Assembly: GCA_963514005.1 (NCBI GenBank)
Contig: OY740791.1
Coordinates: forward strand, 52,390,001-52,454,000
DNA length: 64,000 nt
Source of the DNA: Raja brachyura
Taxonomy: Eukaryota
Direction of reading: 5' to 3'
Shown here: positions 33,472 to 63,435 of the stretch, piece after piece
Layout: every line of letters begins with the position of its first letter
Numbering within the stretch: the stretch's first letter is position 1
Translations under genes and position numbers: made by a program
Notes under the pieces: model-generated
Seen by the model: the letters and a program-made list of their open reading frames with translations, nothing else
What the model was told of the DNA's origin: nothing
Databases searched by the model: none

Positions 33472-33533
33472 CTATCTATCGACATGCATATATTCAGCAG
33501 GATTACTGGTCTCAGGTGCTGGTGCCTCATTTC
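33472..33533 (-). CDS. CD4/LAG-3-like Ig receptor, coding exon 8 (cytoplasmic, GNEAPAPETSNPAEYMHVDR*)
   Basis: Acceptor ccccttttcag, phase 1, open to TAG at 33472-33474. An in-phase GTAAGG donor follows at 33458. Confidence 0.6.
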
Positions 33534-34407
33534 CTGAAAAGGGGATTTTTTTCTGATTAAAACATGAAAGCTACTTCAGATGTTTCAACAAAAAATGCTC
33601 GATTGTTACAGAGAGCTACGAGAATATTTGGGAACATGTGCTCAGTCCATTAGAGAAAACAATCCTGTCTAAAGACAAGGTAGACAAAAATGCTGGAGAA
33701 AATCCAGGGGTGAGGCAGCATCTATGGAGCGAAGGAAATAGGCAACGTTTAAAGCCAAGCTCATTGGAGACTGAATCTTTGGCTTCACTTGTGATGAGTA
33801 GTAATGACATTGTTATTTTTATATAGTTCAAGAGATTACTCCCACTAGCCGCTAAATGGACAGCATGGTTAGGGGGAATGTCTTTATACACATGTGAGCT
33901 CACCATCCGAGACCTTCAGAGCTTCTTCACAGATAAATCTTCAAAACACAGTCCTTTGAATAATAAATTCTTTATTGGTGATGAAAAACAATAAGGTACA
34001 TCCAAACTTCTTCCGACTCATTACTATAATCTTCTTTGAACTCCAGCTTATCGCTTTAAACATTAGAAAATTCCTCGTATCTCCGTTACAGTTCCCATGG
34101 TCAAAGAGTAAACCTTCTCCATGCTGGTCCGAAACTAAAACTAACAACTAAGCTTCCACACAAGAAACGTAGCCCCAAACATGCCCAAAAATACTTCATA
34201 AATCCCACCCACAATATAACGGGCAGTCTAAAATTTAAAGACACATGCCATCTTCAATGAAACACAAAACAAGCCAAATGGCCAATGCATACCGCCCCCT
34301 AATTGTTCCGACTATATAACGAGGCAATTATTAATAAACATCAAAAAAGTAGCCATGAAGGCTTAACATATATCAAAAACAAAGAGTCAGGGAATTTAAC
34401 CCCTTGG

Positions 34408-34479
34408 CTCCGCGTCGGCGAATTGAACACCGGTCTACCGTGTGACAGGCGAGGATACTAACCGCTATACTAAAGAGAG
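34408..34479 (-). tRNA. tRNA-Asp(GTC)-like sequence, probably degenerate, inside the BEL 3' region
   Basis: Minus strand ..TTAGTATAGCGGTTAGTATCCTCGCCTGTCACACGGTAGACCGGTGTTCAATTCGCCGACGCGGAG matches vertebrate tRNA-Asp. A and B boxes and the GTC anticodon are kept; stems are imperfect. Confidence 0.75.
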
Positions 34480-34574
34480 AAAAAAGCATGCACTATATAT
34501 CCGCAATCAAAATTCTTCATCGACTCTTCCATCTTCAATTTCGCCTTCTAGAAGAAAATATAACTTGATTATTA

Positions 34575-36644
34575 ATAGAAACATAGAAACTTAGAAATTA
34601 GGTGCAGGAGTAGGCCATTCGGCCCTTCGAGCCTGCACCGCCATTCAATATGATCATGGCTGATCATCCAACTCAGTATCCCGTACCTGCCTTCTCTCCA
34701 TACCCTCTGATCCCCTTAGCCACAAGGGCCACATCTAACTCCCTCTTAAATATAGCCAATGAACTGGCCTCAACTACCCTCTGTGGCAGAGAGTTCCAGA
34801 GACCCACCACTCTCTGTGTGAAAAAAGTCCTCATCTCGGTCCTAGAGGATTTCCCCCTTATCCTTAAGCTGTGACCCCTTGTCCTGGACCTCCCCAACAT
34901 CAGGAACAATCTTCCTGCATCTAGCCTGTCCAACCCCTTAAGAATTTTGTAAGTTTCTATAAGATCACCTCTCAATCTCCTAAATTCTAGAGAGTATAAA
35001 CCGAGTCTATGCAGTCTTTGTTCATAAGACAGTCCTGACATCCCAGGAATCAGTCTGGTGAACCTTCTCTGCACTCCCTCTATGGCAATAATGTCCTTCC
35101 TCAGATTTGGAGACCAGAACTGTACGCAATACTCCAGGTGTGGTCTCACCAAGACCCTATACAACTGAAGTAGAACCTCCCTGCTCCTATACTCAAATCC
35201 TTTTGCTATGAAAGCTAACATACCATTCGCTTTCTTCACAGCCTGCTGCACCTGCATGCCTACTTTCAATGACTGGTGTACCATGACACCCAGGTCGCGC
35301 TGCATCTCCCCTTTTCCTAATTGGCCTCCATTTAGATAATAGTCTGTTTTCCTATTTCTGCCACCAAAGTGGATAACCTCACATTTATCCACATTATACT
35401 GCATCTGCCAAACATTTGCCCACTCACCCAGCCTATCCAAGTCACCTTGCAGTCTCCTAGCATCCTCCTCACAGCTAACACTGCCCCCCAGCTTAGTGTC
35501 ATCTGCAAACGTGGAGATATTGCCTTCAATTCCCTCATCCAGATCATTAATGTATATTGTAAATAGCTGGGGTCCCAGCACTGAGCCTTGCGGTACCCCA
35601 CTCATCTGCCTGCCATTGTGAAAACAACCCGTTTACTCCTACTCTTTGCTTCCTGTTTGCCAGCCAGTTCTCTATCCACATCAATACTGAACCCCCAATG
35701 CCGTATGCTTCAAGTTTATATACTAATCTCTTATGGGGGACCTTGTCAAAGAGCCTTCTGGAAGTCCAGATACACCACATCCACTGGTTCTCCCCTATCC
35801 ACGCTATTAGTTACATCCTCGAAAAATTCCACAAGATTCGTCAGACATGATTTACCTTTCGTAAATCCATGCTGACTTTGTCCAATGATTTCACTACTTT
35901 CCAAATGTGCTGCTATCCTATCTTTAATAACTGACTCTAGCAGTTTCCCCACTACCGATGTTAGACTAACTGGTCTGTATTTTCCCGTTTACTCTCTCCC
36001 CCCTTCTTAAAAAGAGGGGTTACGTTTGCTACCCGCCAATCCTCAGGAACTACTCCAGAATCTAAAGAGTTTTGAAAGATTATCACTAATGCATCCACTA
36101 TTTCCAGAGCTACTTCCTTAAGTACTCTGGGATGCCGCCTATCTGGCCCTGGGGATTTATCGGCCATTAATCCATTCAATTTACCCAACACCACTTCCCG
36201 ACTAACCTGGATTTCACTCAAGTCCTCCTTTGACCCGCGGTCCCCTGCTATTTCCGGCAGATTATTTATGTCTTCCTTAGTGAAGACGGAACCAAAGTAG
36301 TTATTCAATTGGTCCGCCATATCCTTGTTCCCCATGATCAACTCGCCTGTTTCTGACTGCAAGGGACCTACATTTGTTTTAACTAATCTCTTTCTCTTCA
36401 CGTATCTATAAAAACTTTTGCAGTCAGTTTTTATGTTCCCTGACAGTTTTCTTTCATAATCTATTTTTCCTTTCCTAATCAAGCCCTTTGTCCTCCTCTG
36501 CTGGTCTCTGAATTTCTCCCAGTCTTCTGGTATGCTGCTTTTTCTGGCTACTTTGTACGCATCATCCTTTGCTTTGATACTATCCCTGATTTCCCTTGTT
36601 ATCCACGGATGCACTACCTTCCCTGATCTATTCTTTTGCCAAAC
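34575..36644 (-). mobile_element. Young CR1 (HER1-like) LINE, 5'-truncated, inserted in the BEL element
   Basis: ORFs 35961..36614, 35746..35952 and 34673..35605 give near-continuous ORF2 (PWITREI, KSPGPD, GVPQGSVLGP, FADDTKL). (TTTCTATG)n tail. Confidence 0.95.
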
Positions 36645-41771: not shown

Positions 41772-41870
41772 CTGGCATTTTCTGGATTTCCATAGCATTT
41801 GAATAAAGATGTGATGCTTCTTCTGTATGTCCCTCTATTTGTTGAGGTTTCTGCCTTTGATTTCCCAAAC
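41772..41870 (-). CDS. CD4/LAG-3-like Ig receptor, coding exon 7 (cytoplasmic, LGNQRQKPQQIEGHTEEASHLYSNAMEIQKMP)
   Basis: 99 nt, acceptor catgaacag, donor G|GTATCA, phase 1-1, open frame with a Tyr motif. Confidence 0.7.
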
Positions 41871-43684: not shown

Positions 43685-44611
43685 CAAAATGAGACCAAAA
43701 CTGACCGGACTTTGAACTTTGAATAATGCCGCCAAAAATGGCGGCTCCTGCATATGTAATATATGAAAATTAAATTTCACAGTGCAGTTGCATATCTGAC
43801 AAATAAAGCACCAATTAATCTTAAAACAAATAGACGTAACGTTAAGGTACAAATAAAGCAGCATTGAACGTGAAAATAATAAAATAATGAAACTGAACTA
43901 AAACTAAACTTATATTATATAATTCTACATCCTTAATATTCAAATATGTTCCCTGATTTGAGAAATAACGAGTAATTAACAAGCATACATTAAAACTTGC
44001 AACCTTTATAACACCTATTCTGCCAATAACTTATTTTTAAATGATCATTGATTTCAAATCATTTTGTCTCTATAATCTCTTCAAGACCTTTGAGATCTCT
44101 GGATTTATCATTGGGAAATTAGCCTTCAATGTACGCTATTTTTTAAATGGAATTCTATTTCCTAGTCTCTCTGCCTTACTTCCTGTCCATGCATTTAAAT
44201 CTGAACATTTGAATAAGTTTTCATAATTATCCAAATCTTCTCATCTTTCAAGATAGAGTTTGTTAGATTTAGATCTTAAGGCTGAAGGAATTAAGGGATA
44301 TGGGGGAAAAAGCATGAATGGGGTACTGATTTTGCATGATCAGCCATGATCATATTAAATGGCATTGCTGGCTTGAAGGGCTGAATGGTACTCCTGCACC
44401 TATTTTCTATGTTTCTATCTCTTTTTGTCAAATTTAGTTGATAACTTTCCTGCCAGCACCCTTAGTAGATGCAATCACTTAAAATATGCCGCAGCAAACA
44501 ATTGTCTGCAGACGATATTTGACATAGTGGAACATAAATGAGTGTAAGATATAGTTATGATTGGCAATTTTTAGAATTGTGCTTCATTAATATTTCTGGT
44601 ATGCATCTTAC

Positions 44612-44707
44612 CTTTATTCTTACACTTTTTAAAACACACCACCACTCCCACGATAATGATGAGCAGAACAGCCAAACATCTAATAATAAGAATATAGGTG
44701 TAGGTAT
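44612..44707 (-). CDS. CD4/LAG-3-like Ig receptor, coding exon 6 (TM, TYTYILIIRCLAVLLIIIVGVVVCFKKCKNK)
   Basis: 96 nt, acceptor ctcttttatcag, donor G|GTAAGA, phase 1-1; hydrophobic helix followed by a basic stop-transfer sequence. Confidence 0.85.
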
Positions 44708-45079
44708 CTGATAAAAGAGTAAGCACAGATTTCATCTTTACATGGTTTGTAATTAAAATATTTTTAAAGATTCGTCAATGACCAAATGGATAATGTTGCT
44801 GTGTCAGATTTGAATTCAACATTCAATGAAACTGAAGTGTTGCAACTATCAATTCAGGTAGGCACATAGAAGCAATCACACAGGGATTCCATTCCTCAAA
44901 TCAATGCGTTGATTCCATCTGGCAGATGGGTGCAGATGGATCATCTGCAAAAGCATCTGATTCAGCTGTAAACTTTTTGCCGTACAACAAGCAAATGTTG
45001 CTCATTGTTTGGCTTCAAATGAAATAATCACTGTTTCACTGAGAACTTGTGAGATTGAACTTGCGAACAACTTGAGGCT

Positions 45080-45330
45080 TCATCCCGAGAACAAATGTAG
45101 TGAGGACAGAAAAACTAAGAGAAAGGGATGGTCCTTGCAAGCGACCAAATTGGAAAAGGTATTGTCTACATAGCCATGGGAGTCAGTGGGTTGTTTGTCT
45201 CCTGAGATGGAGATACGCAGATCAAGAAAGGGGAGAAAGGTGCTGAAAATGGTCCAAGTGTATTTAAAGACAGGATGGAAGTTAGTGGCAAAGTTGAACA
45301 GATTGACACATTGGTTGCAGGCAGCACTAC
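45080..45330 (-). mobile_element. Penelope-like RT C-terminal fragment
   Basis: FHPVFKYTWTI..LPFLDLRISISG..PTDSHGY. Confidence 0.75.
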
Positions 45331-46169
45331 CAATGCAGATGTTGAAAGAGTGGTTCTTGTGTCTGGAACAAAGAATTATGTTTTCCATTGTAGAAAACTC
45401 AAGAACTGGGAAGTCTCATTGAAAAATAACAGGCGCCTAGTTAAGGCCAACATGACATGAAATTATTTCAGAGAATTGCAAGTCTTACACAAAGCAGAAT
45501 GATAGCAGGGCCTTTGCAAGTTGTAAACCTGGGGTACATAGATTCTTGACATGTGATAAGTTAAAAAAAATAACTTGGTTAGAGAGAAATGTGGAAATCA
45601 ACTTCCTGCCATAAGTTGTGGTTTTATTGAGGACAGAGATTACTCAGTGTGTTGAGTGGCCAACGTCTATGTTTTTACTGTCTTTGTGCAAAAACAACTT
45701 CCATTTCTCGCCTCTAATCCTGCGACCAATCATTTTAAAACTATTACCCTCCCCATTTTTAACGCGGATCTTCGACGTGAAATGTTTCTCTTTCTGCACA
45801 AATGCTGCGTGACATATTTTAATTCACGAGTTCTGAGCCTGAAGGGCAGAGAGTTGCACTTGCAATGTGTGCAGCTGGAAATGTTATTTTGCTGAGATTC
45901 CTTCAGAGTTCTGCTGCTATTTTCAAATTAATTCTAGATCAGAAAGTTAATGAGAATTATTCAATTTTCCTGATGCATACAAATGCTCAATTTGACTAAA
46001 TGAGTCTGCAAATAGCATGATAATAATGTGCAAGGTTAGTTTGCATGCAATACTGCAGGAAATTTATACACACAATTGCTTTTGCAACACGCAAAATAAT
46101 ATTTGGTTTGTGGAACAAAGTCAAAAGGATTGCAGGCAAGCAATACCAGTAATTGGAAACTTTTAGTAT

Positions 46170-46480
46170 AGTTTAGTTTACAGATACAGCATGGAAACAG
46201 GCCCAGCTAGTCCACACTGACCATTGATCGCCCATTCACACTACTTCTATGTTATCCTACTTTCTCATTTACTCCCCTACTCACATAAGGAGTAATTTTA
46301 CAGAGGTCAGTTAACTTACAAACCTGGACGTCTTTGGGGTGTGGGAGGAAACCGCAACACCCAGAGGAATCCTATATGGTCACAGGAAAAACATGCAAAT
46401 GCCACACATACAGCACCCAAGGTTAGAATCAAACCTAGGTCTTTTGCCCTGTATGGCAGCAATTCTACTAGCTACACCAC
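46170..46480 (-). mobile_element. tRNA-derived V-SINE (HE1-like) with CR1-derived tail
   Basis: V-domain-like gtgggaggaaaccg..cacccagagg..cac, tRNA-like head near 46420-46480, and an agttt tail. Confidence 0.75.
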
Positions 46481-47564
46481 TTGCTCTTACTGATAAACTA
46501 TCATCATGAGAGGTCATGTGATTACCGAAATCGTAATAACTTCTAATTGTAGTTAGGGATCTAGGCTTAGTACATTTAGTAAATCGCAGATGACTACCTG
46601 ACTAACATATTTATAATCAATAATATGGAAACATAGAAATTAGGTGCAGGAGTAGGCCATTCGGCCCTTCGAGCCTACACTGCCATTCAATATGATCATG
46701 GCTGATCACCCAACTCAGTATCCCAATGTCATGTTTGTTCAGACTACACAGGCTTTGAGTTAATAAAATGGTTCCAGGAAAGAAGATGCCTAAGAGAATG
46801 TGAAAATTATTAAATAGACCAGTGGGGATAATAAAGAGGACATAGGCATGTTTCCGATGACAATTCATCTGTGTAGCAATGCACAAAGATCACAAATGTG
46901 TAAAAGCAGATAGTCCGCAGAGGTGGCAAGGAATAATAGCTGATGAAAACAAATGATAGCTGAAGAGAGTGGTTAATATTCAGGTATTGACTGAATATCT
47001 TTTTATGAGACTCCTTCGACAGTGACCAAGACACGTACTCCATGCTTCATTAGTGCGATGGAAGGAATGCAATGTCAGAAGTACCCAATCGTGTTTCTTA
47101 TTTTGATACGGTTAAGGAATAGCCCATATTCCACACAACAGAAATGAGGCCATTCAGTCCCAGAGGTCTATGTTATAGCAAATCCCACTTGTTCCCCTGT
47201 AACATATTCTACCTCACATACCCATTAATCATGTCATCAGTGCTCCCAGCAGCCACGTATACCAATAGTAATTTACAGCAGCCAATCATCTAAATAACCA
47301 GCATAACTTTGGGATGTTGGAAACATACGCTGACATGGAGTCCTGTGATTTGGTCATGCACACAGACAAGGGGAGAACATTGGATTGATAGATCGATCTT
47401 GCTTTGCTGGTGCTCTGGAACATCTTCTCCACATGCAGCACATTTAATACAAAACATGAATTGAGTTTAAATTACATAGCTTCCACAAAGGGTTTTGAAG
47501 AAGTGACTTTAGACCATTGAACAAGGTATTTTGATTACAATGTTGATAGCAAATACTGTAAGAG

Positions 47565-48025
47565 TGCAAAGATAATTTACAAGGATATTGCCAGGACACA
47601 AGGGACTGAGCTATAGGGAAAAGTTGGGGAGACTAGGATTTTATTCCTTGGAGTGCAGGGAGCTGAGGGGTGAAATTGCAAAGGTGTATAAAATCATGAG
47701 GGGAATAGATAGGGTGAATGCACTGATATGGAAATTACCCAGGATATGGAAATCAAGAATCAGGCCATAATTGAGAGGGTTGATATTTAATAGGAACTTG
47801 AGGGGAAACTTTGGCACTCAAGTGTTTGGTGGATATATAGAACAAACTGCCATTGGATGTAGATGAAGCAGGTACTATACCAGCATATCAAAGTCACTTG
47901 AACAGGTACATGGATAGGAAAGGTTTGGAGGGATGTAGTCAAAATGCAGGAAAATGGGACTAGCTTAGATGGGCTATCTTTGTCGGCATGGATGAATTGG
48001 ACCAAAGGCCTGTTACATGGTGTAC
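47565..48025 (+). mobile_element. CR1 LINE 3' fragment
   Basis: GLSYREKLGRLGFYSLECRELRG..VYKIMRGIDRV plus the CR1 3' UTR. Confidence 0.8.
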
Positions 48026-48241
48026 GACCCTCTGACTCAAATATGATTAACGACATTTGAATAAATACTGATGCTATCATGCCCACAACAACCCAGGCTC
48101 GATTGTAACTAATTCTAAGTTTCTGCCCTGTAGAGTCTACCACACAGGATTGAAAGAGTCACTGCTGCCAAAAAGGACAATGATTGTCAAATTGCCTTAA
48201 CATGAACATAAATATAAAGAGAAAATATTTGCTTCACTTAC

Positions 48242-48502
48242 TACTGAATTCCAGATTGTAAGGGACTAAAATCTGGAGCCTTTCTTGTTGGAACAAACCA
48301 CATCTCCAGTTCCCTTTGCCTCTCTCAGCTTTCTGAATAACCAGACTCAGTGATTTATCTTCTCCATTGAGTGTCTTTTCTTCAACAGTTTTGCTGTCAA
48401 CATTGATCCAAACCAGTCTCACCAGTTCAGTGACGTGGGACACGGAGCAGGTCAAGATAACCTTGCCTCCCTCAGTCACTGTATCATTTGGCTCGGCTGT
48501 GA
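48242..48502 (-). CDS. CD4/LAG-3-like Ig receptor, coding exon 5 (D4, C2-type Ig)
   Basis: 261 nt, acceptor tttcttgttcccag, donor A|GTAAGT. VILTC..LVW..LSLVI..GNWRC carries the WxC F-strand typical of CD4-family C2 domains. Confidence 0.9.
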
Positions 48503-48630
48503 CTGGGAACAAGAAAAACATTTAGATTTTAAATATTATCTTTTAATTAATAACACAAGCAATGTTTTATCCAATAGCAAAATGCTGCTGGTGCTGGAAA
48601 TCGGTTGTTACACGACATTCTGTCTCCTAC

Positions 48631-48972
48631 CTTTTACTGTGATTAGTTTCATAGTTAAAAACTTATTTATGCCCAGAGTACAGGTGTAAACTCCTGCATC
48701 CTCGAACACCAAAGGGGAAATCCTCATCGTCAAATTATTGCCGTTAAATTCTGTCACTGAGGGCTCCAGTCGATTCGCAATGTGACTACTGGTGACAGTG
48801 ACGGGCTGAAACCTTACTGCCGTTGCTATTTCTTCGGTCAAACGTGGATGAAGATGTGATGTCCAGGACCAGGCAGCTTTGTTGTAATCTGTTGTAATAC
48901 TGTAACAAAGGAGGTTGAGTTCACTGCCATCTGTGCCTGTGCGATAAAGTGTGTAACTTTCTCTATATAAAG
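48631..48972 (-). CDS. CD4/LAG-3-like Ig receptor, coding exon 4 (D3, V-type Ig)
   Basis: 342 nt, acceptor tctcctgatgcag, donor G|GTAGGA. LNLLC..AAWSW..LTMRIS..EDAGVYTC. Confidence 0.9.
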
Positions 48973-51726
48973 CTGCATCAGGAGACAGAGAAGAAGACAT
49001 TTCACAGTTATTATTTAGGGGAAGGGCAGGTCAGGTCATGAGGACCTGATGTTGTTGTTGTTCCCCACAGCCATCAGGCTATTAAACACTACAACCTCCT
49101 AAATTATGAACTACAATAGACTATTATTATTATTATTATTGCACTGTTTTTGGTTTATTTTTGAGTTTTTACATTATTTATTATGATTACATATTCTGCT
49201 GTGCTGCAAATAAGAATTTCATTGTTCTATCTGGGACAAATGACAATAAAACACTTGACTCTTTACTTTTGATTTTGTGTGCCTCGACTCTTATCAGTCC
49301 AATCTGCAGCAACTGCAATCACTTCAAACAGCTGCAGGACTTGGTGATAAGGGTCACTGAGGGGAGAAGGGACGGATTGTTGTTCAGTGCTGATGTGAGC
49401 ACCGGGACCCCCAGTGTCTGTGTGAGCAGGAAGTGCTGATGACATGCTGACCCCTCTGTTTATGTAACACTTTGACATGGGTAACACTTTAATATTGATC
49501 TGAGGAGATGAAAGATTAGAGTAAGGAATCGTGTATATCCACAGTTTCAATTTCCTGTTAAAAGTCAATGCACAATTATATTTGAATGACCTGACAGAGT
49601 GGTCTGAATATTACCAGGACGGGAGGGTTTTAGTTGTACAGAGAGACAGGATAAGCTGAGCCTGTTCTCACTGGAGTAGGAGTTTGAGGGGTGTCCTCAC
49701 AGAGGTACTGTCAAGTCCAGTTTATTGTCATTAACTCTAGTACGGAGAGATATAGTTACAATGTCACCTTCTGAGGTAGCCTCCCACGAAGATATTTTCA
49801 CTGGTGGAGAGGGCTGTTCCTGTGATGGATTACACTGTCATGGGGGGCATAAATAAGGTGAATAGTCACATTATTTTTCTCAAGATAGCAGAGTCCAAAC
49901 CTAGATGCCTTAAGCTGCGAGGGGAAAGCATTAAAGGGGATCTGAACGACAGGTTTTTCCACTCAGAAAATGATGGGTATGTGGAATAAGATCACAGTGG
50001 AGGTATAGGGGTGAATAGGATTACCACATTAAAACATTTGTGTGATTATGGGTAGGAGAGGTTTGGAGGTATAAGCACCTTCTCCATGGGCTCTTATTTC
50101 CAGCATTGCTTTTACAATGGCTTTTAGTCACAGCCGAATGCACACTTTTTTTCAACCACATCTATTTTTGAATCAAATCATGTTACAGGGGCGGAGGGAA
50201 GAACAAGGTTGCGGAGCACAGAACCGCACTGGGTCGATGTCTCCATTGCTCCCACTTCTTCCCAGCCTCCCCCTCTGGATGTGAAATCAGTTTCAGGGTA
50301 ATTAGAAGGACAAGTTTCAGCTGTAGATTATTGGGTGAAGCAAACCTATTCTCAGGTTCCAGTTCAAGAGATTTAAAACAATCCAGAGTATATTTACCAT
50401 ATGCACCAGATATAATCCAGAACAATGATATAATTACTTGCTGCAGATTTACAGGCACGTTAGATGTAACAACAACAATAAATATATCATAAATTATCAG
50501 TTACTCTTAGTAAACAAGACCATGATAGTGCAAAGACTAAGGTATGTTGAGGAACCATTGTCATGCAGAGTCCACAGTAGTTAGCTGCTGTGGTTCGGTT
50601 ATGGTTGGGGTTGTGCGATGAGGTTCAAGAACCTGATGAGTGATGAGAAGAAAGTAAAAACATCTTTAGATATGTAAAAACATGATGGGTGATGAGAAGA
50701 AAGTAAAAGCTTCTTTACATATGTAAAAAGCAAAAGATTAGTGAAGGCAAATGTACGTCCCTTACAATCAGCCACAGGTGAATTTATAATGGGAAACAAG
50801 GAAATGGCAGATCAGTTAAATGAGTACCTTGGTTCTGTCTTCACAAAGGAAGACACAAACATTCCCCCAGAAATACTTGGGGACCGGGAATCTAGTGGGA
50901 GGGAGGAACTGAGGGAATCCACATTAGTTCTGAAATCGTGTTTGGTAAACTGTTGGGACTGAAGGCAGATAAATCCCCAGGGCCTGATGGTCTGCATCCC
51001 AGAGTACTCAAGGATGTGGCCCTGGAAATCATCAATGTATTGTTGATCATTTTTCAATGTTCTCTCCACTCTGGATCTGTCCCTGTGGACTGGAGTGTAG
51101 CCAAAGTAACTCCACTTTTTAAGAAAGGAGCGAGAGAGAAACCTGGGAATTCTAGACCAGTTACATCGGTAGTGGGGAAGATGCTAGAGTCAATTATTAA
51201 AGATATTATAACAGCGCATTTGGAAAGCAGTGACAGGGTCGGTCAAAGTTAGCATGGATTTATGAAGGGGAAATCATGCTTGACTAATCTTCTGGAATTT
51301 TTTGAGGATCTAACAAGTTGAATGGATAAGGGAGAGCCTGTGGACGTGATGTATCTGGACTTTCAGAAAAGCCTTTGACAATGTCCCACACAAGACATTA
51401 GTATGCAAACTTAGAGTACATGGTATTGGGGGTAGGGTATTGATATGGATAGAAAACTGGTTGGCAGACAGGAAGCAAATAGTAGGAATTAACGGGTCCT
51501 TTTTCAGAATGGCAGGCAGTGACTAGTGGGGGTGCCACAAGGCTCGGTGCTAGGACCCCAGTTATTTACAATATATATTAACGATTTAGACAAGGGAATT
51601 AAATGTAACATATCCAGGTTTGCAGATGACACAAAGCTGCGTGGCATTGTGAGCTGCAAGGATGCTATGAGGCTGCAGGGTGACTTTGATAGGTTGGGTG
51701 AGTGGGCAGATTGGCAGATGCAGTAT

Positions 51727-54700
51727 AATAGTAAGATTAAACAAGAACTTAACAGTTTGAAGTTTGATCGTTATTTTATGAGGAGTTACGATGAGGGATT
51801 ACGTGAAGAAGGCCGTCCCCACACATGCGCGTCAATCTTCAAAGTAGCGGTGTGAAATCACAGATAACAGTTGTTGAACTAACATAGTAAGATTATAGAT
51901 GACTAGAACTACCAGATGATCGTTAAGTTACGAGGGTAGGGAGCGGAGGGCACGTAATCCCTCATCGTAACTCCTCATAAAATAACGATCAAACTTCAAA
52001 CTGGTAAGTTCTCGTTTAATCTTACTATTTTACTTCGGAGTCATGTGAGTGACTACGTGAAGACTTTGAAGGTCTGTGATTTCATGCCGTGGAAAAACGA
52101 GTCCACACAATCACGACTGCATCAGTTGACCATAAATGTGGGAAACATCATAATGCATACATACATGACATAGGTTTAAAAAACATGCTGATGCTCATAA
52201 AGAACAAACAATAATAACAGTAACACCTCTCAACCGAGGGGAACTATAAATTGAACCTAAATATATTTGGCACACATCCCTGGTCTGGCAATGGGTTAAA
52301 ATAAATGTTGGATACCTCGTTTGTTAGACCATCCTGCAGTAGACAGTATGCTACTTGCTGCTTGTGTTGTAGCAGCGCTGGTGGAGTGAGAATAGAAATC
52401 AGTATCTACTCCTGTATAAGCCAATCCTCGCACCAGGGAATAACCTACCTATGAGAGCTGAACCAAAGATAGAGGTATAGCTGGAGCCCCAGAGTGAATA
52501 AATGTTAACACGATGTCAATATCCAATACTTCCATGTACTTGGGTCTGGAAGAACTTGTGTTAATGATATCCTAAATACTGGACACCAGATGGTGAAACC
52601 CAAGAGAGCGGGTCCCACTTGATGCAGCAACTATAGGGAGAAGCACGTTGGGTACAGTTAATGAGACTATAACTTAATTTATTGTCAACAACCCATAGAA
52701 AAGAACTCTAAGACGTCAGTGTCCGTGCCGTACTATATGTAACATAACATTTAACAGAAAAACACTTTCCATCTTCTGAAGAGGCAAAGTACTGCTTTTT
52801 TGGTTGCTATCCCTGCATACTGCAGTGAGACGTACATGGATCAGTCTGACAGCCTGCTCCGCAGGAGTGGTCTTCTCAGATTCTGTAAAGCAATTAATTG
52901 ATTAATCATGTAGAGGCTGGTTCCCCGAATCCCAGGCTGAACCAGCAAAGTTTTATGTTTAGAACCCCATAGAAGGTTCTATATTATTCCCAACATTTGC
53001 GGGAAACCATGGCTGTGTAGGCCAGTCAGACAGTCCGAGAAACCTGAATGCAGGATCTTGCTGAATATTGTAAGCCCCGACTGATGAGACAAAATGGAGA
53101 ACCACATAAAGGAACATTCCTCCCCTGTGTAGCGAGAATGAGACTGCATGCAAACATAACAATAGTGGGTGCCACAGAGCCATAGTTCCTAAAATGCTTC
53201 GTGATCCACCATCCATACTGTGTTATCATTGACTTTGCATGATGATACACCAACGCCAAAAAAGGTTGGGTAAATTATGACAGGATACTTTGACTTTATT
53301 GCATTCATGTGACTAACATATGCCACCACCACAGTGTATCAACTTGGAACTAAGCATGCAGGATTTGCATATTCGCACAATAACCCTTTAACCCATAGTA
53401 TACACCTCGTGTCTATAGGTAGTTAATACCAATAACTGAAGAATTGGTGATTCAGGCAAATTCCATCCGCCTTCGTTACTAGAGATGGCATTCGTGATTG
53501 TCCATCTTAGTTCTAGCATGTGTAAGTAATATAACTGAAGATAATATGACCAAACTACTGGAGCAATACAGAATGTAGTTTGACCATCATAGTGACCATA
53601 GTAGCTTCACCTGATAATAGCATAGGTTTGTTAACAATGACCTTTATGGCACTTGAGAGGTTAATACTTGCACGTTGAAAGTTCTAATGGTGCAAGACCC
53701 AATTGCACAGCTGCTGTAGCCAATTACCCTTAATAACTAGAAGCCAAGGTTGTTACAGGCTTCAATTAATTCCAATCTGTTGCCCCAGGGCGGAATCACA
53801 GGTAATTAATAGTTAAAGGTAAACCCGATAAACCACAACTACCAGTTGGTATCAACTTAAATTAGACTGGATGCCTAAGCAAAACACAGCATAAGAAATA
53901 TCCTCCAGACCAAATTGAAATGTCTCTGGTGACCTCCTGTGAATGGGTCCTAAACAGTATGCATCTATGAAACCGATGCATGCCATAAAAATCCTAAGTA
54001 AATAAGTAATTAGACAGTAGAGAAATTCCATATACTGAAAGCTATGTTGCACATGGGAGTAAATGAAATATGAACCGGCATCTCTCCATCTTTCACAAGG
54101 AACAAGCCACACCATAATTCCGTGCCTGCCTAGAATGCAGCTCTGGCCATACTACTGGCCTGCCTTAAAGCTGCTCCGTCATTCTGAGTCTGCCTCGAGG
54201 GAGAACTCTGGCCATATTACAGACTCTGGCCCCAATTTCAAGGCATGCTTTGTACCCTAGTATACTGTGTAATAATTACCCATCACATGTCAACATTTTC
54301 ATTTGTACCAAACAAGTATAAATATTACGAACTTGTAAATGGTGCACTTACCCCATGTTTCGAACGACCCAGACCCACCTACCTCCATGGCTACCGGTGG
54401 TCTAATGTTAAGCCCAAAGGACCGTGATGTGGGTTCCATTCCCATCCTTGATTTCCTTCCTGAGACCAGCTTGGCCCAGCTTTCAAGCGCCCATCAACTT
54501 CAGCGAACTGCTACTGCTGTTGATGGTTTCATTTGATCGCTCTGTGCACTGCCTGCACTTGTAGCATCAGGGAATCTGGCCCCTGCTGGGTTTTTTGCCT
54601 CTTCCCTTGTGAGTATGTCCTCGCACTCCCCTCCACTGAGAGGGGGAATCGTAGACAGCCCTGACAGGTGCTGCCGCAGGCCCCTGAGGATACCTGCGCT

Positions 54701-56016
54701 GACATGGCCCCTCGGCCCTATATCAGACAATATCAGAGTATGAGTCTGGGCCAGAGCGAAACTAACCCCTGGTGCTCCCCTCCTCAGAGAGGGAGACATT
54801 GTGCAGCCCTAACAGGTGCCGCTGCCTGCAGGTTATTCATAATACCCGGGCTCAGATAGCTCTCTACTGGAGCATATCTCTCTGGAGCAACCTCATTAGG
54901 TGCCTATTCCAGGTGGGTTTTTGACGTTTACAGAGGCTACCCATAGAAGGAGGGAGGAGGGGGGGGGGGGGGGCTCCTGGCCTGACTCGACCGAGTCCAA
55001 GGCCTGACCGGCTTCCTCGTGGTTTAACCCCTTTCCCTGGGGAACCATAGCGGTCTGTGAGTTGCTGACCCCATAGGTAATTATTTGGTCTTGAGTCCAG
55101 CTTACTGCCAGCTTTCCCCTTATTTAGAAAGACCTAAACGGTCTGGGAGCTGCTGACCCCCATTGTCAGCGACTGCAGTAGCATGACCAGCTTACTGCCA
55201 GTCTGACCGCTTTCTCTAGGAGGTCCTAAGCGATCTGGGGGTTGTTGACCCCAATGTCTGAGACTGGGGTAGTTAGACCTGCTTGCTGCCAGTCTAACCC
55301 CTATTTCTGGGGACCATAATGGTGTAGAAGCTACAGACCCCATAGTGAATGGCTGGGGTTGCAAGACCGACTTGGTGCCATTCTAACCCCTACTGCTAAC
55401 CCCCTTAACAGTGACTGGGGTAGTAAGACCGGCTGACTGCCAGTCTAACCCCTTCTCTGGGGAACCATTGTGATGTGGGAGCTGCAGACCCCATAATGAA
55501 TGGCTGGGGTTGCAAGACCGGCTGACTGCCAGTCCAACCCCAACTCTAGGGGACCCATGCGATGTGGGAGCACTAACCCCATTTAACAGTGCTGGGGTAG
55601 GAAGACCGGCAAACTGCCAGTCTAACCCCGTTCTCTGGGGGACCATAGCGGTCTGGGACCCATACTGGGAGAAACCCACTCGCATTTCCCTTCCGGGTGT
55701 CGCTGACCTCCTTGCCAGCAACTTGGGAGCGAACCCGACGGCCGCCGGCTATGTGCGATACCGCGGTCCGGACCGGGATTTACCGGTCCATAACCGGTTT
55801 CCCGCGGCCCGTCCAACTTCGCCCCGAATTCAGCAGGCAATCCTGCAAAACAAAACACATCCCTAGAAATAAGTGAAAACTTACCTACCAGGTTTAAAAC
55901 TTACCGCTAGCAGGAGCCGCACACCCACCAGTCAGTCCGTGGGCAACGCATCAGATGTAATGATGTGCGTGGGGGCAGCCTTCTTCACGGAGTCACTCAC
56001 GTGACTCCGAAGAAAA
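51727..56016 (-). mobile_element. DIRS-type retrotransposon, copy D (divergent subfamily), termini intact, ORFs decayed
   Basis: Terminal arm 51727-51805 is complementary to the ICR at 51951-52062. ITR gaagaagg..ccccacaca is inverted at about 55965-55989. Methyltransferase remnant FCLISRG..DWPTQPWFP (52959..53259). Confidence 0.9.
55030..55665. repeat. Tandem repeat, about 90-95 bp unit x about 6, in the 5' region of DIRS copy D
   Basis: Repeated actgccagtctaacccc..ggggaccat..gggagctgc.gacccca..gactggggt. Confidence 0.8.
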
Positions 56017-57028
56017 ATATCAATAAATGTGAAGTTATCTACTTTGCTGTCAAGGACAGGATGGCAGATTATTATCTAAATGCTGTCTGATTAGGAAAAG
56101 GGGAGGTCCAACGAAACCTGGCCGTGCTTGTACATCAGTCACTGGAAGTAAGCTTGCAGGTACAGCAGGCAGTGAAGAAGCATAATGGCATGCTGGCCTT
56201 CATTGTGAGAGGATTTTAGTTTAGGAGCAAGGAGGTCCTACTGCAGTTGTACAGGGCCCTGGTGAGGCCGAACCTGGAGTATTGTGTGCAATTTTGGTCT
56301 CCTAATTTGAAGAAGGACATTATTGCTATTGAGGGAATGCAACGTAGGTTCACGAGGTTAATTCCTGGGATGGCGGGACAGACATATGATGAAAGAATGG
56401 GTCGACTGGGCTTGTATTCACTGGAATTTAGAAGGATGAGAGGAGATCTTATAGAAACATATAACATTCTTAAGGGATTGGACAGGCTATCAATGTGGTG
56501 GTCCCAGTACAGATGAGAGTTGTGCACGACCAGGATCTTGAAGAGGCCGACTGTCTCCATGTAGAACCATTGAAAATAGGTGCATAGTCCCTTGGCTTTC
56601 CATTCCTGTCAGAGCTTTGATTAGGTGTCTAATGCAGATATTCAACCAGGGATGCGCATAATTAATACACCAATCATGTGTGTTAATGGCAATTGACTGA
56701 TAACTCTAAATACATAGATAACAGTAGATTTACTTTTAAAGAGACAGGTGAAAGACATTGAACTTTGCAATGAAGGAGTTGAGAATCACACCAAAGCTAA
56801 AACATTAATGTTATTCCATGGAATCTAGCACCAGATCAATCCATTGGATGCACGCAGTGACTCTTGACCAAGGGGAAGGTGAGTTTTGTATTTGGACTAA
56901 ATGTATGTATTATTTTCATGTGAATGGGCATGATTAATATATTTTATTCAAATTTTTTTTGCTTATCATGTTAGTTAATTGTGATTAAGTGGCAAACTTA
57001 ATATCTAAGGTAAGATAGCAGCACTTAC

Positions 57029-57298
57029 AGTTGCTTACAGCAAATTCTGCGTTCCCTTTGCCAACAACCTTTGCATTTTGCTGCACTTCACATTCATACA
57101 TCATCCCATCCTCCACTGCAACATGTCGGATCATCAGATAGACCGTGTTATTCAGGCGGATCTGATCAGTGTTGCTCGTGTTCTGCTGGGATGAGTCCAA
57201 TGGTCTCCAGTGAAGACTGACTGTATCTGAGAGTCTGGAGATGGTGCAGCTGAGTGTGACGTCACTGCCCATCACAGGCTTGCGTGGACTTGCCTCGA
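57029..57298 (-). CDS. CD4/LAG-3-like Ig receptor, coding exon 3 (D2, C2-type Ig)
   Basis: 270 nt, acceptor tatttttcacag, donor T|GTAAGT. DVTLSC..SLHW..YLMIR..EDGMMYEC. Confidence 0.9.
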
Positions 57299-57569
57299 CT
57301 GTGAAAAATAATGAGACTCAGAGTGAGTAGTGGCTTGTACAGTACAATGATTGAGTTTAATCTGACCTAAAGGTGTGCCCATTAGCAGCATTTCTATTTT
57401 TAGAGTCAGTCTAGATATAGTTGGATCTTAGACATAAAATAATACAGAGAGTGCACCGACTCACAGTCTAGCTACGCTAAATCAGTGATGCAGAGCTGAG
57501 GTAATGATTGGATGCCATGGTTCAGATCAGAGTTCCATGGTTTGGACACCATTTGCCAATGCCAACAAT

Positions 57570-57760
57570 GGGGTGGCTGAGTGATGCAGCTGGTAGTATG
57601 ACAGCTCCAGTCACATGGGTTCCATCCCAACCTCCAGTGCTTCGTGGGATACTTGCACTATCTCCCCATGGGCACAAGGGTTTACTCAAAGTCCTCCTAT
57701 TTCATATCCTAAAAAAGTATGACCACTATAGATTTTCCATGGCGTGCAGGTGAGCAAATT
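57570..57760 (+). mobile_element. Degenerate V-SINE
   Basis: tRNA-like head (gggttccatccc) followed by a V-domain-like segment. Confidence 0.45.
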
Positions 57761-57824
57761 AGTTTGAGCGAGTTGTGGAGAATAAAAAGGAATTAGTATT
57801 GTGAAATTAGTAAAATCAGTGTTC

Positions 57825-58205
57825 GACCCTTCGAGCTAGCAACACCATTCAATGTGATCATGGCTGATCATCCACAATCAGTATCCCGTTCCTTCCATCT
57901 CCCCATATCCTCTGAATTCGCTATCTTTAAGTGCCATATCTAGATCTCTCTTGAAAGTATCCAGAGAACTGGCCTCCACCGCCCTCTGAGGTAGAGAATT
58001 CCACAGACTTACAACTCTCTGTGTGAAAGAATGGTTCCTCATCTCCGTCCTAAATGCCTTACCCCTTATTCTTAAACTGTGGCCCCTGGTTCTGGACTCC
58101 CTCAACATCGGGAACATGTTTCCTGCCTCTAGCTTGTCCAAACCCTTAATAATCTTATACCTTTCAATAAGATCCCTCTCATCCTTCTAATTTCCAGAGT
58201 ATAGA
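57825..58205 (-). mobile_element. CR1 LINE 3' fragment
   Basis: ESRTRGHSLRIRGK.FRTEMR..FTQRVVSLWNSLPQ. Confidence 0.9.
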
Positions 58206-58214
58206 AAGTGTGCA

Positions 58215-59680
58215 CTTTAGAAAAATCAAGAGGGGGAAAAAGAGGCATGAAATAGATCTGATGTATGATGCCAATGGAGATGAACTATAATATTTAAGAA
58301 TATTTCTCATGAGTTTGCTCGGAGATGCACGTAGAAGGTAAAGAAATGTGGGGAATGAGTTGTGATCTTGGAATATAAATGAATTACCAGAGAGGATGTA
58401 TTTGTAGTCTTAAAGTGCATTAATTTGGATAAAACCCCATCACCTGACTAAATGCAATCTCAGACATTACGGGGAAGAAATTGCAGAGATTTGCATCACC
58501 TTTAGGCACAAATGAAGTTCCCAAACACTAGAGTGAGAGTGACTGAAGTTATGTTGTGCTGTTATATAAGAGGGACATCAAGGACAAAACGGGGACCTAA
58601 AGCTTGACATCAGCAGTGGGTTAACTACTGAAGGGGATTCTGAGGGACAGGATCTAATTGCATTTGGATAGACGGACTGATTAGGGATAGTCAGCATGGC
58701 TTTGTTTGTGGCAAATCATGTCTCAAAAATCTGAACGTTTTTTTCAAATGGTAACAAAGTGGATTCATGAGGCAGAGTAGTGGAAGTAGATGAGGTGGCC
58801 ATTTGCAAGGCCTTTGATATGTTGCACATGGTTGACTAGCATGAAAGGTTAGATCACATAGAATTCAGGAAGAGCCAGCTAAATCAGTACTGTAACACAG
58901 GCCCTTCCCTCTACTGAGAGGGAGTGAGGGAGATAAGCCTGAGACCGCCAGCGCCTTCCCTCGAGGCAAAGGTGAACTATGGCGAGAAGCCTGAGATCGC
59001 TATGCATCCTCCTTCAAATCCGGGACTGTACTGAGGGATAAGTCTGAGATTGGCAGCGCCACACGATGTGTGTACTGATAACGAGTGACAGTGCCCCAAT
59101 GTGGTCCTGGACTTCTTGTGAATAAAAATATCACATGAGTTCACCCTCCTGCAAATGTCACTGTGGTCACTGCCAACCTAGCATAATCGGCAATGCCACT
59201 ACACATAATTGGTTTGATGTAGGAAACGGAGGGTGATGGTGGAAGGTCGCTTTTCAGAGTGGAGACCAGTGTCTCGTGATGTGCCTCAGGAATTAATGCT
59301 GGGACCAATGTTGTTTGTAATTTTTTTAAATAATTGGCATGAGAATGTAAAAGGCATGGTCAGTAATTTTACAAATGGCATTAATAGAAGAGTTTTCACA
59401 GACAGTGAAGAAAGTTGTCAAAAATTACAATTGGATTTTGACCGACTTGGTATGTGGGCTGAGGAATTGCAAATGGCATCTAAATCTGACAAGTGCAAGG
59501 AGATGGGATCTTATTTTGCATTGTACAAGGCGTTGTAGTATTGTGTAAAGTTTTGGTTCTCTGTTTTCGTAAAGATGTCATTAAGTTGGAATGAATGGAA
59601 TAAAATAATGAGAATATTGCAGGTTATGGGATACAGAGAGAAATTGAACATGTTAAGTCTTTATTCCTTGGAAGGTTGGA
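58215..59680 (+). mobile_element. Old CR1 LINE, degenerate, interrupted by a solo-LTR-like insert
   Basis: SQHGFVCGKSCL and DVPQELMLGP remnants. Confidence 0.7.
58891..59203 (+). mobile_element. Solo LTR candidate (about 310 bp)
   Basis: TGTAA...TACA ends, internal AATAAA and internal gcctgaga repeats; interrupts a CR1 frame. TSD is ambiguous. Confidence 0.5.
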
Positions 59681-59899
59681 GGCTGGGGGGGGGGGTGATG
59701 TTTTTGACCACAGAACATAAAATAGTACAGCACAGGATTAGATGCTGCAGCCCAAATGTCGTCCTCTTCTTGCGTATGGTGTGCACAGCCTAAAGTTGTA
59801 GGACAACTTGTTCTGTTTGATCTTATTTGATTGGCTCTAATATCTGTGCAGCACAATAAACTAATCATGGAGCTCATGATGCTCTGTATGTTAATACTG

Positions 59900-61130
59900 T
59901 CATTAACTATATATTTTCCCCTTGCATTTAACCCCCCCCCCCAAAGTGCAACACCTCACACATGTACAGATTAAACTCCATCTGCCATTTATCTGCCCAT
60001 ATCTGTGTCTGACCTCTAACTGCTGCATCATTAGCCAGACTTCGTCACTGCCTGCCACTCCAATTTTTGTGACTCCAAATTTTTGCATCAATAATCCATT
60101 TACATTTCCATCTAGGCCAATTATATATTACAAACAATAGAGGTTACAACACTTTTCCTTGCGGAACACCATTGGTCAAAGACTTCGACCCAGCATGACA
60201 CCTTTCCACCACTACCCTCTGTCTTTATGGGATGCTAGATCTGAATCGAAGCTGCTAAGTCACCATTGATCCCAGATATCTTAACCCTCTGGATCAGTCT
60301 ACCATGAGGGACCTTGTCATTTTCCTAATGTCAACAACATCCCTTCAATTATCTACAGCAACTCACAAAAATGTTAATCAAATTTGTAAAATTTGACATG
60401 CCCCACAGGGACCCTCAGCATGGTTTCGTAATTTGTCCATTCCCTTCCAAATACAAGTAAGTTTTATCTCTGAATCCCATCTTATAGCTTCCCTACCACT
60501 GATGTGAAGCTCACTGGCCTACATTTTCCCGATTAATTTTTATAACATTGGCCTATCCGTGTTCTCCACAGGTGCATAACCTGCTGAGTTACTCCAGCAC
60601 TTTGTGTATTTTTCTATGTAAACCAGCATCTGGTGTTCCCTGGTTCTTAGAAAATCACTGGCTGCTATCCATTCCTCTGGGACCTCGCTTGTGAATAGAA
60701 AAGATACAGGGATCATTGTCTAGGACTGGCAGTCTTCTCTCTTGCCTCGCTCATTAATTTGGGTCAGATCCTATCAAGTCCTGGCGATTTATCCTTTTTG
60801 CTTTTGCTCTTTTGCTAAGGATCTATCCATAATGCTTTTCAAGAGCACCATAACTAACTGTTCTTGCATATTAGTATTCTCCATCCTGATCTCAATGTCT
60901 TCCATGTCCTCCTCTTTCATACATACTGTTGTAAAGTATTTATTTAGTACCGTACCTACATCCACTGGCTCTCGGCAAGAATTCCTTCCTTTTTCGTTGA
61001 ATAGTCCTGCATCTTCCTAGTGGGTTTTTTTAAATGTATGTATAAAAGGTTTCAGATTCTCTTTAATACAACTTGCCAATGACATTTCAGGACCCCTCCT
61101 GACTCCTTGCATCATTCTTTACGGTTTTCC
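59900..61130 (-). mobile_element. Old CR1 LINE, degenerate
   Basis: Reverse-strand remnants of the KF.DDTKIG and WQM.FN motifs. Confidence 0.55.
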
Positions 61131-61447
61131 TCCACCTTACTGGACCATGCTGGTATTGAACTCTGATCAACTGGTCTTTGAATGACTCCCAAATGTGGAC
61201 TTATCCAATGACAGCTCCAGTTTAAACTCCATTTTAACTATCTAAACTAAATTCCAGTTTAAACCTCCAGTTTAAATTCCATTTGGAATATTTTGGAGGA
61301 CCAAGAAACCAAGAGCTGTTTCCTATGCTGAATATGATGCACCATCTCAATTCAGTGCTTTACCCCAAGGTCCATACTCAATGGATCAATTAACTTTTCT
61401 GTGCTAGGCATTGAATTGTTCATGGAGAACTCTTATTCAATACTCAC

Positions 61448-61789
61448 TTTTAATGCCAAATATTTCGTACCGTTTCAGGATTTTATAACTCGGCGACGTT
61501 TGTGCCAAGATGAGGGATCCAGCAAATTTAAATGTGGGATAGCTTATCCTCAGATGTACAGTACCATAATCGCATTTCATGTCATGGAACAAGTCAAAGT
61601 TTCTGAGGTTAGGGTTCAAATATTGCATCCACTGGCCATAATTATCTCTCCGTAATTCTATCAGCTGTTGCACTCCTTGCCCGGAATGTAATGTCCAGCA
61701 CCAGGCAGCAGGGCCATTTCCAGGATTGATTGGTTCATGGAACACAATGCCATCTCTTTTATTGAAAATATATATGTCATTGGGGTTAT
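61448..61789 (-). CDS. CD4/LAG-3-like Ig receptor, coding exon 2 (D1, atypical V-like Ig)
   Basis: 342 nt, acceptor cttcttaaacag, donor A|GTGAGT, open frame. AAWCWTLH and HLRISYPTFKFAG align with D3 AAWSWTSH and TMRISPLVFEDAG. Confidence 0.85.
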
Positions 61790-62974
61790 CTGTTTAAGAA
61801 GAGGAACAGTGGAAGTATTTTAATATAATCATGCATGTTTTATTCCATAGTAATTATTTATCTTGGTTTTCCATAGAAACAATATTATTATTTTTATCAA
61901 TTCATCATCGTATCTAAATGCCACACTGTTACTCAAGCAAATGAACAACTCTTGCACATTTGGTGCAGTTGTCAATATATACATCAATGATGATATGTTG
62001 AATTTACTGCAATTAGGGGTCTCAGGGAAAGTGTAGTGGATATGAGGGTGAAAGAGAATCTCAATAGATATGGAGGAGTCAGTCTGCATTTGTTTCCCAT
62101 TTCCTTTTACTAAAGTAGAGATTGCAACTCTTTTGACTGAAGTGTAAATTTCACTGGCTCAAAATAACTGCAAAAATTCCAAATTTTACAGACACTAATA
62201 TTCTTATTTTTCAAATTCTATCCATGATTCAGCCTTTTAAAAATTGAATGGTAAACTTTATGGAAATCAGTGATTACTCAAGTTTGTAAAATAAATGGAA
62301 ATCAATGGGGAATTTTGGATGACTTGGGATGGTACAGCATTGTTACTGGAAGCTGAAAGCAAATGTACACAGATTTTAAGGAGCAGGGATGTGGAAATGT
62401 GTTTCAAGGTCAGTTTATTATCACATGTACCAATTAAGGTACAGTGAAATTCAAATTGCCATACTAAAAAAAAAGCAACAAGTCACACAACTACGCAAAA
62501 ATTAACATAAACATCCACCACAGTGGATTCTCCACATTCCTCACTGAGATGTAAGGCAATAAAGTCAAATCTTCTTCCTCTTTACTCTTCTGCGGTCGGG
62601 GCAGTCGAACCATCCGCATCGAATCCCCTGCGGCTTGGAACTTCCGAAGTCGTTCTGTGACCAGAGACTGCGAGCTCCACGATGTTAAAGTCTGCAGGCT
62701 CCCGCGGTTGAGCTCAGAGGTCGATCACTGGCAAAGGGATCGCAGGCTCCACGATGGTAAGTCCGCTGGCACCCGCGGTGGAACTCCAGAAGTTGGTCTC
62801 CAGCAAAGGCTGTTAATTTCTCGAAGTTAGGCCGCAGTGTGGACGAAGATACGATATGGAAAAAAAAAAATTGCTTCTCCGTCAAGATGAGAGCTCTCAT
62901 GATGTAACATGCTTTGTACACATTCAGAAAAAGTAGAAACAAATTGATAATGATTGGTGAACCAATGCACTTAC

Positions 62975-63050
62975 TCTGGGAGAAAACAGACTGAATTAAA
63001 GCAACCAAGACTCCGAACACCAGCCCAGGAGGCATTTTGCTGTGGACCAT
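62975..63050 (-). CDS. CD4/LAG-3-like Ig receptor, coding exon 1 (signal peptide MVHSKMPPGLVFGVLVALIQSVFSQ)
   Basis: ATG at 63050, hydrophobic leader, phase-1 donor A|GTAAGT. An acceptor (ttacag) at 63085 implies an upstream non-coding exon. Confidence 0.8.
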
Positions 63051-63254
63051 TCATAGCCTCATTCCACAGATTCCTTCTCTTTCCCTGTAATAGTGAAACA
63101 AATAGCTTTACATGACATACAAAAAATATCAAGGACGCATTCTCAGCCCCTTAATATAATCCTTATGCACTCACGCCTGCATAACCAAATTCTGGTTTAA
63201 GTCCACTTACAAGATTTCCAATGGCGTCAGCATAGTATGCAGAACCTCAAAAAA

Positions 63255-63412: not shown

Positions 63413-63435
63413 ACACAAAGTGCTGGAGTAACTCT

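Follow-up and report, generated by a model that had tools for sequence, protein, structure and literature searches.

How might a receptor that is built like CD4 and LAG-3 and carries the tail motifs of neither transmit a signal? This question is raised by a gene on the minus strand of a 64,000-nt stretch of the Raja brachyura genome (assembly GCA_963514005.1, contig OY740791.1, positions 52,390,001 to 52,454,000; hereafter the window), for which the original prediction had proposed a distinct V-C2-V-C2 receptor of CD4/LAG-3 architecture with a tyrosine-based tail of its own. All together, our comparisons favour, with a probability of about 0.6, the reading that the window gene is the activating or decoy twin of a predicted inhibitory gene located 74.4 kb downstream, and that its product would signal through an FcR-gamma-type adaptor. 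We base this reading on an ectodomain that is the same as that of the twin, an arginine in the membrane segment, the loss of the exons for immunoreceptor tyrosine-based inhibitory motifs (ITIMs), and the occurrence of the same pair in Amblyraja.

Twin genes with matched ectodomains and different tails

The eight exons of the window gene add up to 1548 nt, coding for 515 amino acids and a stop codon, and its seven introns are all of the GT-AG type and all in phase 1; the exon lengths, phase and canonical splice sites first proposed are therefore borne out (Table 1). The predicted protein, a type I receptor, consists of a leader, four immunoglobulin (Ig) domains (D1 to D4), one hydrophobic segment (peak at residues 436-454) and a 57-residue tail. 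As originally proposed, D4 has the WxC motif, the tail has no CxC, and the tyrosine motifs HLYSNA (Y485) and AEYMHV (Y510) are present. The stop codon in exon 8, the membrane arginine (Arg440), a D1 without a cysteine pair and the YxC of D2 are features that the original prediction did not contain.

The twin maps to G000:C11:52378644-52331852. From the leader to D4, the two genes differ at 2 of 1291 coding nucleotides and, between positions 48500 and 63499 of the window, each 500-nt bin is 99.4-100% identical to the twin. Beyond the edges of this tract identity falls gradually, through 98, 97, 92 and 77% upstream and from 95 to 81% downstream; farther out, the flanks of the two genes bear no relation to each other. 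The membrane exon of the twin is 83% identical to that of the window gene and uncharged, and its tail continues into two ITIM exons, while the 44.7 kb lying between exon 8 of the window gene and the twin contain no ITIM exon. Separately, the first two tail exons of the twin are duplicated (G000:C11:52358433-52346815).

The exon 8 stop falls 13 nt before the intact GT donor of a 75-nt exon, whose frame is open in the twin, and no ITIM is found in the window gene's own tail. Since the stop lies inside a homologous exon and the ITIM exons are gone, the tyrosine tail is a shortened family tail. Specifically, LYSN-type sites occur in 25 and EYxxV-type sites in 33 of 48 double-ITIM relatives, so that both motifs are common to the inhibitory members and the idea of a private tyrosine-based tail does not stand; what sets this tail apart is that two ITIMs have been lost.

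Only two copies of the Arg-type membrane exon were found in the Raja brachyura genome. Amblyraja holds both forms within one 90% cluster, P0005 with the arginine and P0125 with ITIMs, at two separate annotated loci. The Arg-type membrane exon is the same in the window gene and in Amblyraja at 27 of 31 residues and, being common to both, it predates the species split. Rhinoraja has a comparable pair in which one member is a lysine form (D1 89%, D4 95%). The near-100% identity over 15 kb could also be explained if the twins were two alleles of a single locus that the assembly had arranged in tandem, an explanation to which the contig depth, having no single-copy baseline, is no obstacle. The graded decay of identity on both sides, the unrelated farther flanks and the two Amblyraja loci make it highly improbable.

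Two trees of hand-picked rows give complementary groupings: with D2 and D3 (12 rows) the window gene pairs with its twin (100/100), i.e. by species, and with the membrane exon (10 rows, lysine forms omitted) it pairs with Amblyraja P0005 (99/97), i.e. by type. Conversion between the ligand domains of paired receptors and concerted evolution of paired CEACAMs are discussed in PMC5112662. Ectodomains that group by species and membrane exons that group by type fit a paired receptor presumably kept alike by gene conversion.

Membrane charge, inhibitory motifs and a possible mechanism

Membrane segments and ITIMs were counted in 121 stored family proteins, 7 isoforms or extras having been dropped from 128. 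All 29 proteins with a charged membrane residue (23 lysine, 6 arginine) are without an ITIM; at least one ITIM is found in 55 of the 62 with an uncharged segment, and 30 proteins are without a membrane segment. Five of the six arginine forms, from Mobula and Hemitrygon, are on a different membrane subtype, and for this reason arginine gain and ITIM loss seem to have occurred twice; a second, independent gain in these genera, inferred without a tree, is likely. The Mobula and Hemitrygon proteins P0014, P0030, P0033, P0034 and P0114 are eight- or two-domain forms with an arginine at the same membrane position and no ITIMs.

Two zeta-family adaptor exons are present in the Raja brachyura genome, one of which (L112) we take to be FcR-gamma. 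In mammals, as outlined in PMC1318474, arginine goes with FcR-gamma and lysine with DAP12, and an NxxR context is described in PMC2413239 for FcR-gamma-associating membrane segments. On these grounds a mechanism can be proposed in which both twins would bind the same putative ligand through D1 and D3, the twin would inhibit through its two ITIMs, and the window protein would signal by pairing Arg440 with an FcR-gamma-type adaptor carrying an ITAM (immunoreceptor tyrosine-based activation motif), its YxN motif being a possible dock for Grb2. Repeated gene conversion would keep the two ectodomains matched, as in paired receptors exploited by pathogens. In agreement with paired receptors, the genes are clustered, their ectodomains are similar and homogenised between partners, and their products have ITIMs in some cases and a charged membrane residue in others. 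The twin genes offer a clean natural experiment, with one ectodomain and two opposite predicted tails.

Several points weigh against an activating or decoy twin. No Asn is found three residues before Arg440, i.e. the NxxR context is absent; the exon 8 stop is known from one assembly; the membrane-exon tree is built on 33 columns; the database tails are automatic models, some of them probably cut short (P0005 ends just past the membrane exon); and the counts are not independent where isoforms or close paralogues enter them. In addition, when contigs of run X3, whose kind is not on record and which may derive from the assembly's own sample, were compared with window positions 44500-63100 only, the D3-D4 junction alone of the seven was seen in reads, as an exact splice at the predicted sites in one contig (record 9) that fits both twins, and none was seen for the membrane and tail exons, the latter lying outside these positions. 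The remaining six junctions did not show up in reads.

Some of these points also feed the main rival explanation, according to which the window gene is a truncated duplicate of its inhibitory twin with no signalling role, either as an inert decoy or as a copy in decay. The absent NxxR context and the lack of a copy-specific transcript in the X3 comparison agree with it, as do the stop inside an otherwise intact exon, the missing 3' exons and the several broken copies in the cluster described below. We nevertheless consider it unlikely, because the membrane exon is older than the species split, every exon is open with intact splice sites, and charge and ITIM loss coincide in all of the charged proteins counted.

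A multigene family found from chimaeras to frogs

Besides its twin, the predicted activating or decoy gene has many relatives in the same genome. A search with the D2 exon gave 55 D2-like matches among 64 scored candidates, and the single distinct receptor of the original prediction thus turns out to be one member of a large multigene family. Domain searches in 1.06 Mb of contig C11 gave 26 D1, 23 D2, 23 D3 and 23 D4 matches, and a hand count places about 17 genes or fragments in a cluster of 0.78 Mb (51.72-52.50 Mb; about 13 gene-sized models and at least four fragments). The cluster genes have four or eight Ig domains, five of them have a lysine-type membrane exon, and several copies are broken. 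In one cluster gene (G000:C11:52120647-52129764), the pair of tail exons, one of which is the first ITIM exon, is repeated three times with a spacing of 3720 nt.

On its two sides the cluster has an ArfGAP/PH/RhoGAP gene, with ArfGAP and PH below the Pfam cut-off, and a prolyl-4-hydroxylase alpha (P4HA) gene, and not the markers COPS7A, USP5 and GNB3 named in the original prediction, so that synteny with the CD4 locus is not supported; the flanking genes presumably correspond to ARAP3 and P4HA2, which in human lie in the 5q31 region. The nearest flanks are not genes of the major histocompatibility complex (MHC), according to an exon filter that covered some 150 kb of one flank and 125 kb of the other. 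The CD4/LAG-3 locus was not located in the assembly (a COPS7 search gave two matches on other contigs, MLF one gene, TIM and C2-set none), which is no proof of its absence. Copies on other contigs, in the six loci examined (C13:68.09-68.13 Mb, C24:42.86-42.88 Mb, C29:41.57-41.59 Mb, the end of C16, C33 and C40, all in G000), show 90-96% identity over stretches of several kb; many are found close to the end of a contig, and some are broken. The distribution over many contigs, with several copies close to contig ends, suggests recent subtelomeric spreading. Three of the six loci are eight-domain lysine forms, and some frame breaks are observed.

The database proteins closest to the window gene come from skates (77-94% per domain). 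In the alignment search, the best 120 of 145 relatives belong without exception to sharks and rays, and almost every one is labelled 'uncharacterized'. When a 41-sequence family profile was searched against 1.84 billion proteins, 131 new matches emerged, full-length relatives among them. Of the 20 given by name, 18 are proteins left unnamed or loosely named in Heptranchias, Callorhinchus, Acipenser, Huso, Polypterus and Amia, and in eels, tarpon, a mormyrid, cyprinids, characins and two frogs; the other two are coelacanth CD4 (E 4.5e-30) and coelacanth LAG-3 (E 1.2e-22). All 14 distant relatives with four domains that were checked carry the WxWxx(H) signature of D1 (one of them as a variant), as against none of four CD4/LAG-3 sequences, and the GYLxxK membrane motif of sharks, the lysine motif, recurs in bowfin and sturgeon. 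The frog relatives are without D1 and keep ITIM-like sites. The nurse shark protein AGQ17915.1 (P0020), named 'obscurin-like protein', is in fact an eight-domain family member; nothing on this accession was found in the text or one supplement of the elephant shark paper.

The family occurs in all elasmobranch orders that were sampled, and beyond them it can be followed to chimaera, sturgeon, bichir, bowfin, teleosts and frogs. Of the proposed uncharacterised elasmobranch CD4-related receptor, the uncharacterised status and the nearness to CD4 and LAG-3 hold, whereas the restriction to elasmobranchs does not. Few paired immune receptor families have been described in cartilaginous fishes, and this one, large in the Raja brachyura genome, is apparently an undescribed and ancient paired-receptor family nearest to CD4 and LAG-3. 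No description of it was found in the open literature; subscription journals were mostly uncovered, and a prior description is possible.

Comparison with CD4, LAG-3 and other named families

In the window protein, Pfam assigns D3 to the V-set and D2 and D4 to Ig, and gives no Ig match for D1. A model of the D1 exon (predicted local distance difference test score, pLDDT, of 84) has a V-type Ig fold, with a best Z of 13.8 and a root mean square deviation of 2.2 over 105 residues. The canonical cysteine pair is absent from this D1, and 31 of 41 family D1 domains contain no Cys at all. The window D1 has non-canonical cysteines at C56 and C98, found also in Amblyraja and Leucoraja relatives, for which a replacement disulfide is possible. 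The original prediction had regarded both D1/D3 and D2/D4 as visibly paralogous. For D2/D4 this is confirmed by pairwise alignment (z 7.7) and between profiles (E 1.9e-6), but for D1/D3 the pairwise z of 3.6 lies below the best of 500 shuffles and paralogy is seen only profile against profile (E 2e-5, probability 77%).

Among solved structures, LAG-3 is the top sequence match both of the family protein P0004 (E 1.7e-7) and of a six-sequence profile. The 41-sequence profile ranks CEA first by summed repeats, with no single stretch passing, LAG-3 next and CD4 ninth; membership of CEACAM was set aside, D3 being a V domain. A Foldseek search with a model of a Leucoraja relative (pLDDT 73) places LAG-3 first (E 1e-16) and CD4 second (E 7e-16) over about 420 columns, the global template modelling (TM) score being low because the domain angles differ. 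As structural neighbours of D3-D4, the ESM Atlas gives CD4 (TM 0.78), a cluster without a name, and contactin-2-labelled and G6f-like (0.72-0.77) clusters. Per V-C2 unit, the family profile gives 52-68 bits to CD4, 30-59 to LAG-3 types and up to 72 to the tyrosine-tailed P0156. Two further matches, presumably DICP-like and B7-like, score 22-25 and up to 27 bits, respectively. P0156 and P0168, two proteins without a name, consist of V-C2 repeats followed by a tail in which YxxL sites occur several times, and against the family profile they score as high as CD4; they may possibly be another CD4/LAG-3-related or G6f-like lineage. In a 38-unit tree, from which four rows were left out and which includes no shark CD4 or LAG-3, 26 family units lie on one side of a branch and eight CD4/LAG-3 units on the other (90/77; 92% of bootstrap trees). 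The family joins the CD4/LAG-3 D3-D4 units at 76/75, a weak node where long branches meet.

These profile and fold searches bear out the proposed V-C2-V-C2 receptor with CD4 and LAG-3 as its closest named relatives, and the domain order is that of both. According to section 3.2 of PMC10768021, shark CD4 and LAG-3 have no D1 intron, which voids the single-exon D1 as a contrast to them, and shark CD4 uses CxH rather than CxC; the same paper gives a cytoplasmic Cx(C/H) motif for CD4, and WxC in both D2 and D4 for CD4 and LAG-3. In the family, WxC occurs in 41 of 41 D4 domains, whereas D2 is mostly YxC (YxC 36, FxC 2, none 3 of 41). With LAG-3 the window gene shares, besides the domain order, the WxC of D4 and a single-exon D1 as in sharks, and LAG-3's presumed braking role would have its counterpart in the inhibitory twin. 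It differs from LAG-3 in a tail on two exons (more in the twin, which has a classic double ITIM), in a D1 without the cysteine pair, in YxC in D2 and in a multigene cluster, apparently at another locus; the (F/Y)xxL(D/E) motif of the single-exon LAG-3 tail is absent, a loose form being found in 1 of 48 ITIM-bearing relatives. CD4 is approached by a multi-exon tail and, among named proteins outside the family, coelacanth CD4 scores best in the profile search. The Lck clasp Cx(C/H) is missing, neither CxC nor CxH being present in the window tail or in any of the 48 relatives, and the charged membrane residue, the many paralogues and the other flanking genes are further differences. Because the tail motifs of both are missing, the window gene is neither CD4 nor LAG-3, a conclusion supported by our data, with these two as its closest named relatives.

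The leading ranks of LAG-3 and CD4 could also speak for a T-cell co-receptor, or for a receptor signalling via its own two tyrosines, with Grb2 at YxN and an SH2 protein at Y510, like G6f or G6f-like. The G6f-like protein of teleosts has four Ig domains and YxN (PMC3528668), and G6f-like clusters are structural neighbours of D3-D4 (up to TM 0.77). Nevertheless, the window tail has no ITAM, its two tyrosines lying 25 residues apart and neither having L or I at +3, both of its motifs are leftovers common to the inhibitory members, and the co-receptor clasp is absent; in G6f-like itself, the reporter assay reported in PMC3528668 found the YxN tyrosine dispensable. Signalling of this kind is therefore improbable, and the paired multigene organisation sets the present genes further apart from G6f-like.

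A further explanation is that automatic annotation has left unnamed a family already described, i.e. DICP, G6f-like, MDIR or CEACAM. DICPs, the diverse immunoglobulin domain-containing proteins known from ray-finned fishes, are clustered and occur in inhibitory, charged-membrane and secreted forms, some with duplicated D1-D2-D1-D2 units (bioRxiv 2021.06.11.448072), and DICP and G6f-like were compared by description only, no named sequence having been aligned. On the other hand, that preprint describes a DICP D1 in which C23 and C104 are kept, and an MHC location for the bowfin cluster; neither is seen here, the F strand of the family having no Cys and the flanks, as far as scanned, being ARAP-type and P4HA genes. 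Skate MDIR is described as CD300/pIgR-like (PMC3031540) and was compared by name only. No DICP, G6f-like or MDIR name appears among the best 120 of 145 relatives or among 20 of 131 new profile matches, and the unnamed match whose pattern we assume to be DICP-like scores, with its 22-25 bits per unit, below the 30-68 of CD4/LAG-3. A described family under another label is thus quite improbable.

Near-identical ectodomains, opposite tails and conversion are known for LILRA6/LILRB3, the Xenopus CEACAM pairs and Xenopus XFL, which differ in their Ig architecture; here the tract spans four domains with their introns, and NxxR is missing. In conclusion, the family works like a paired receptor, is built like CD4 and LAG-3, and is placed here in none of the named families. 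Since CD4 and LAG-3 are its nearest named relatives, it can serve as an outgroup for their origin and as a test of whether their lineage started out as paired receptors. More tentatively, it might be an overlooked third CD4/LAG-3 branch, an ancient paired set running from chimaeras to frogs, in which case CD4 and LAG-3 would represent a single activating/inhibitory pair that became fixed and shares the V-C2 origin of the family; on innate cells, such receptors might recognise MHC class II or the mimics of it that pathogens make, a scenario that we consider possible but doubtful.

Table 1. Positions in the window of the exons and other features of the gene.
Feature	Positions	Strand	Remarks
Exon 1, predicted leader peptide	62975..63050	-	76 nt coding; 76/76 nt same as twin
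Exon 2, D1, V-type Ig fold without canonical cysteine pair	61448..61789	-	342 nt; structure model
Exon 3, D2, C2-type Ig domain with YxC	57029..57298	-	270 nt; Pfam Ig
Exon 4, D3, V-set Ig domain	48631..48972	-	342 nt; Pfam; run X3 record 9 splice to D4
Exon 5, D4, C2-type Ig domain with WxC	48242..48502	-	261 nt; Pfam Ig
Exon 6, transmembrane segment with Arg440 (codon 44681-44679)	44612..44707	-	96 nt; 80/96 nt same as twin
Exon 7, tail, Y485 in YxN (Grb2-type) motif common to family	41772..41870	-	99 nt
Exon 8, tail, Y510 and stop (33474-33472)	33472..33533	-	62 nt, within homologous 75-nt exon
Candidate polyadenylation signals (two hexamers), 263 and 290 nt after the stop	33177..33209	-	predicted from sequence only
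Tract 99.4-100% identical to ITIM-bearing twin, D4 to leader exon	48500..63500	.	likely gene-conversion tract

In both twins an out-of-frame ATG (63054-63052, minus strand) lies 4 nt 5' of the start codon and could open an overlapping upstream frame; the Amblyraja and Leucoraja proteins start with two Met. The window also contains long open reading frames on the minus strand (26156-23466, 30830-27088, 17256-14436 and 40019-37600), which we take to be retrotransposon-like, namely reverse transcriptases of the long interspersed nuclear element type and pol/gag pieces of the long terminal repeat type.

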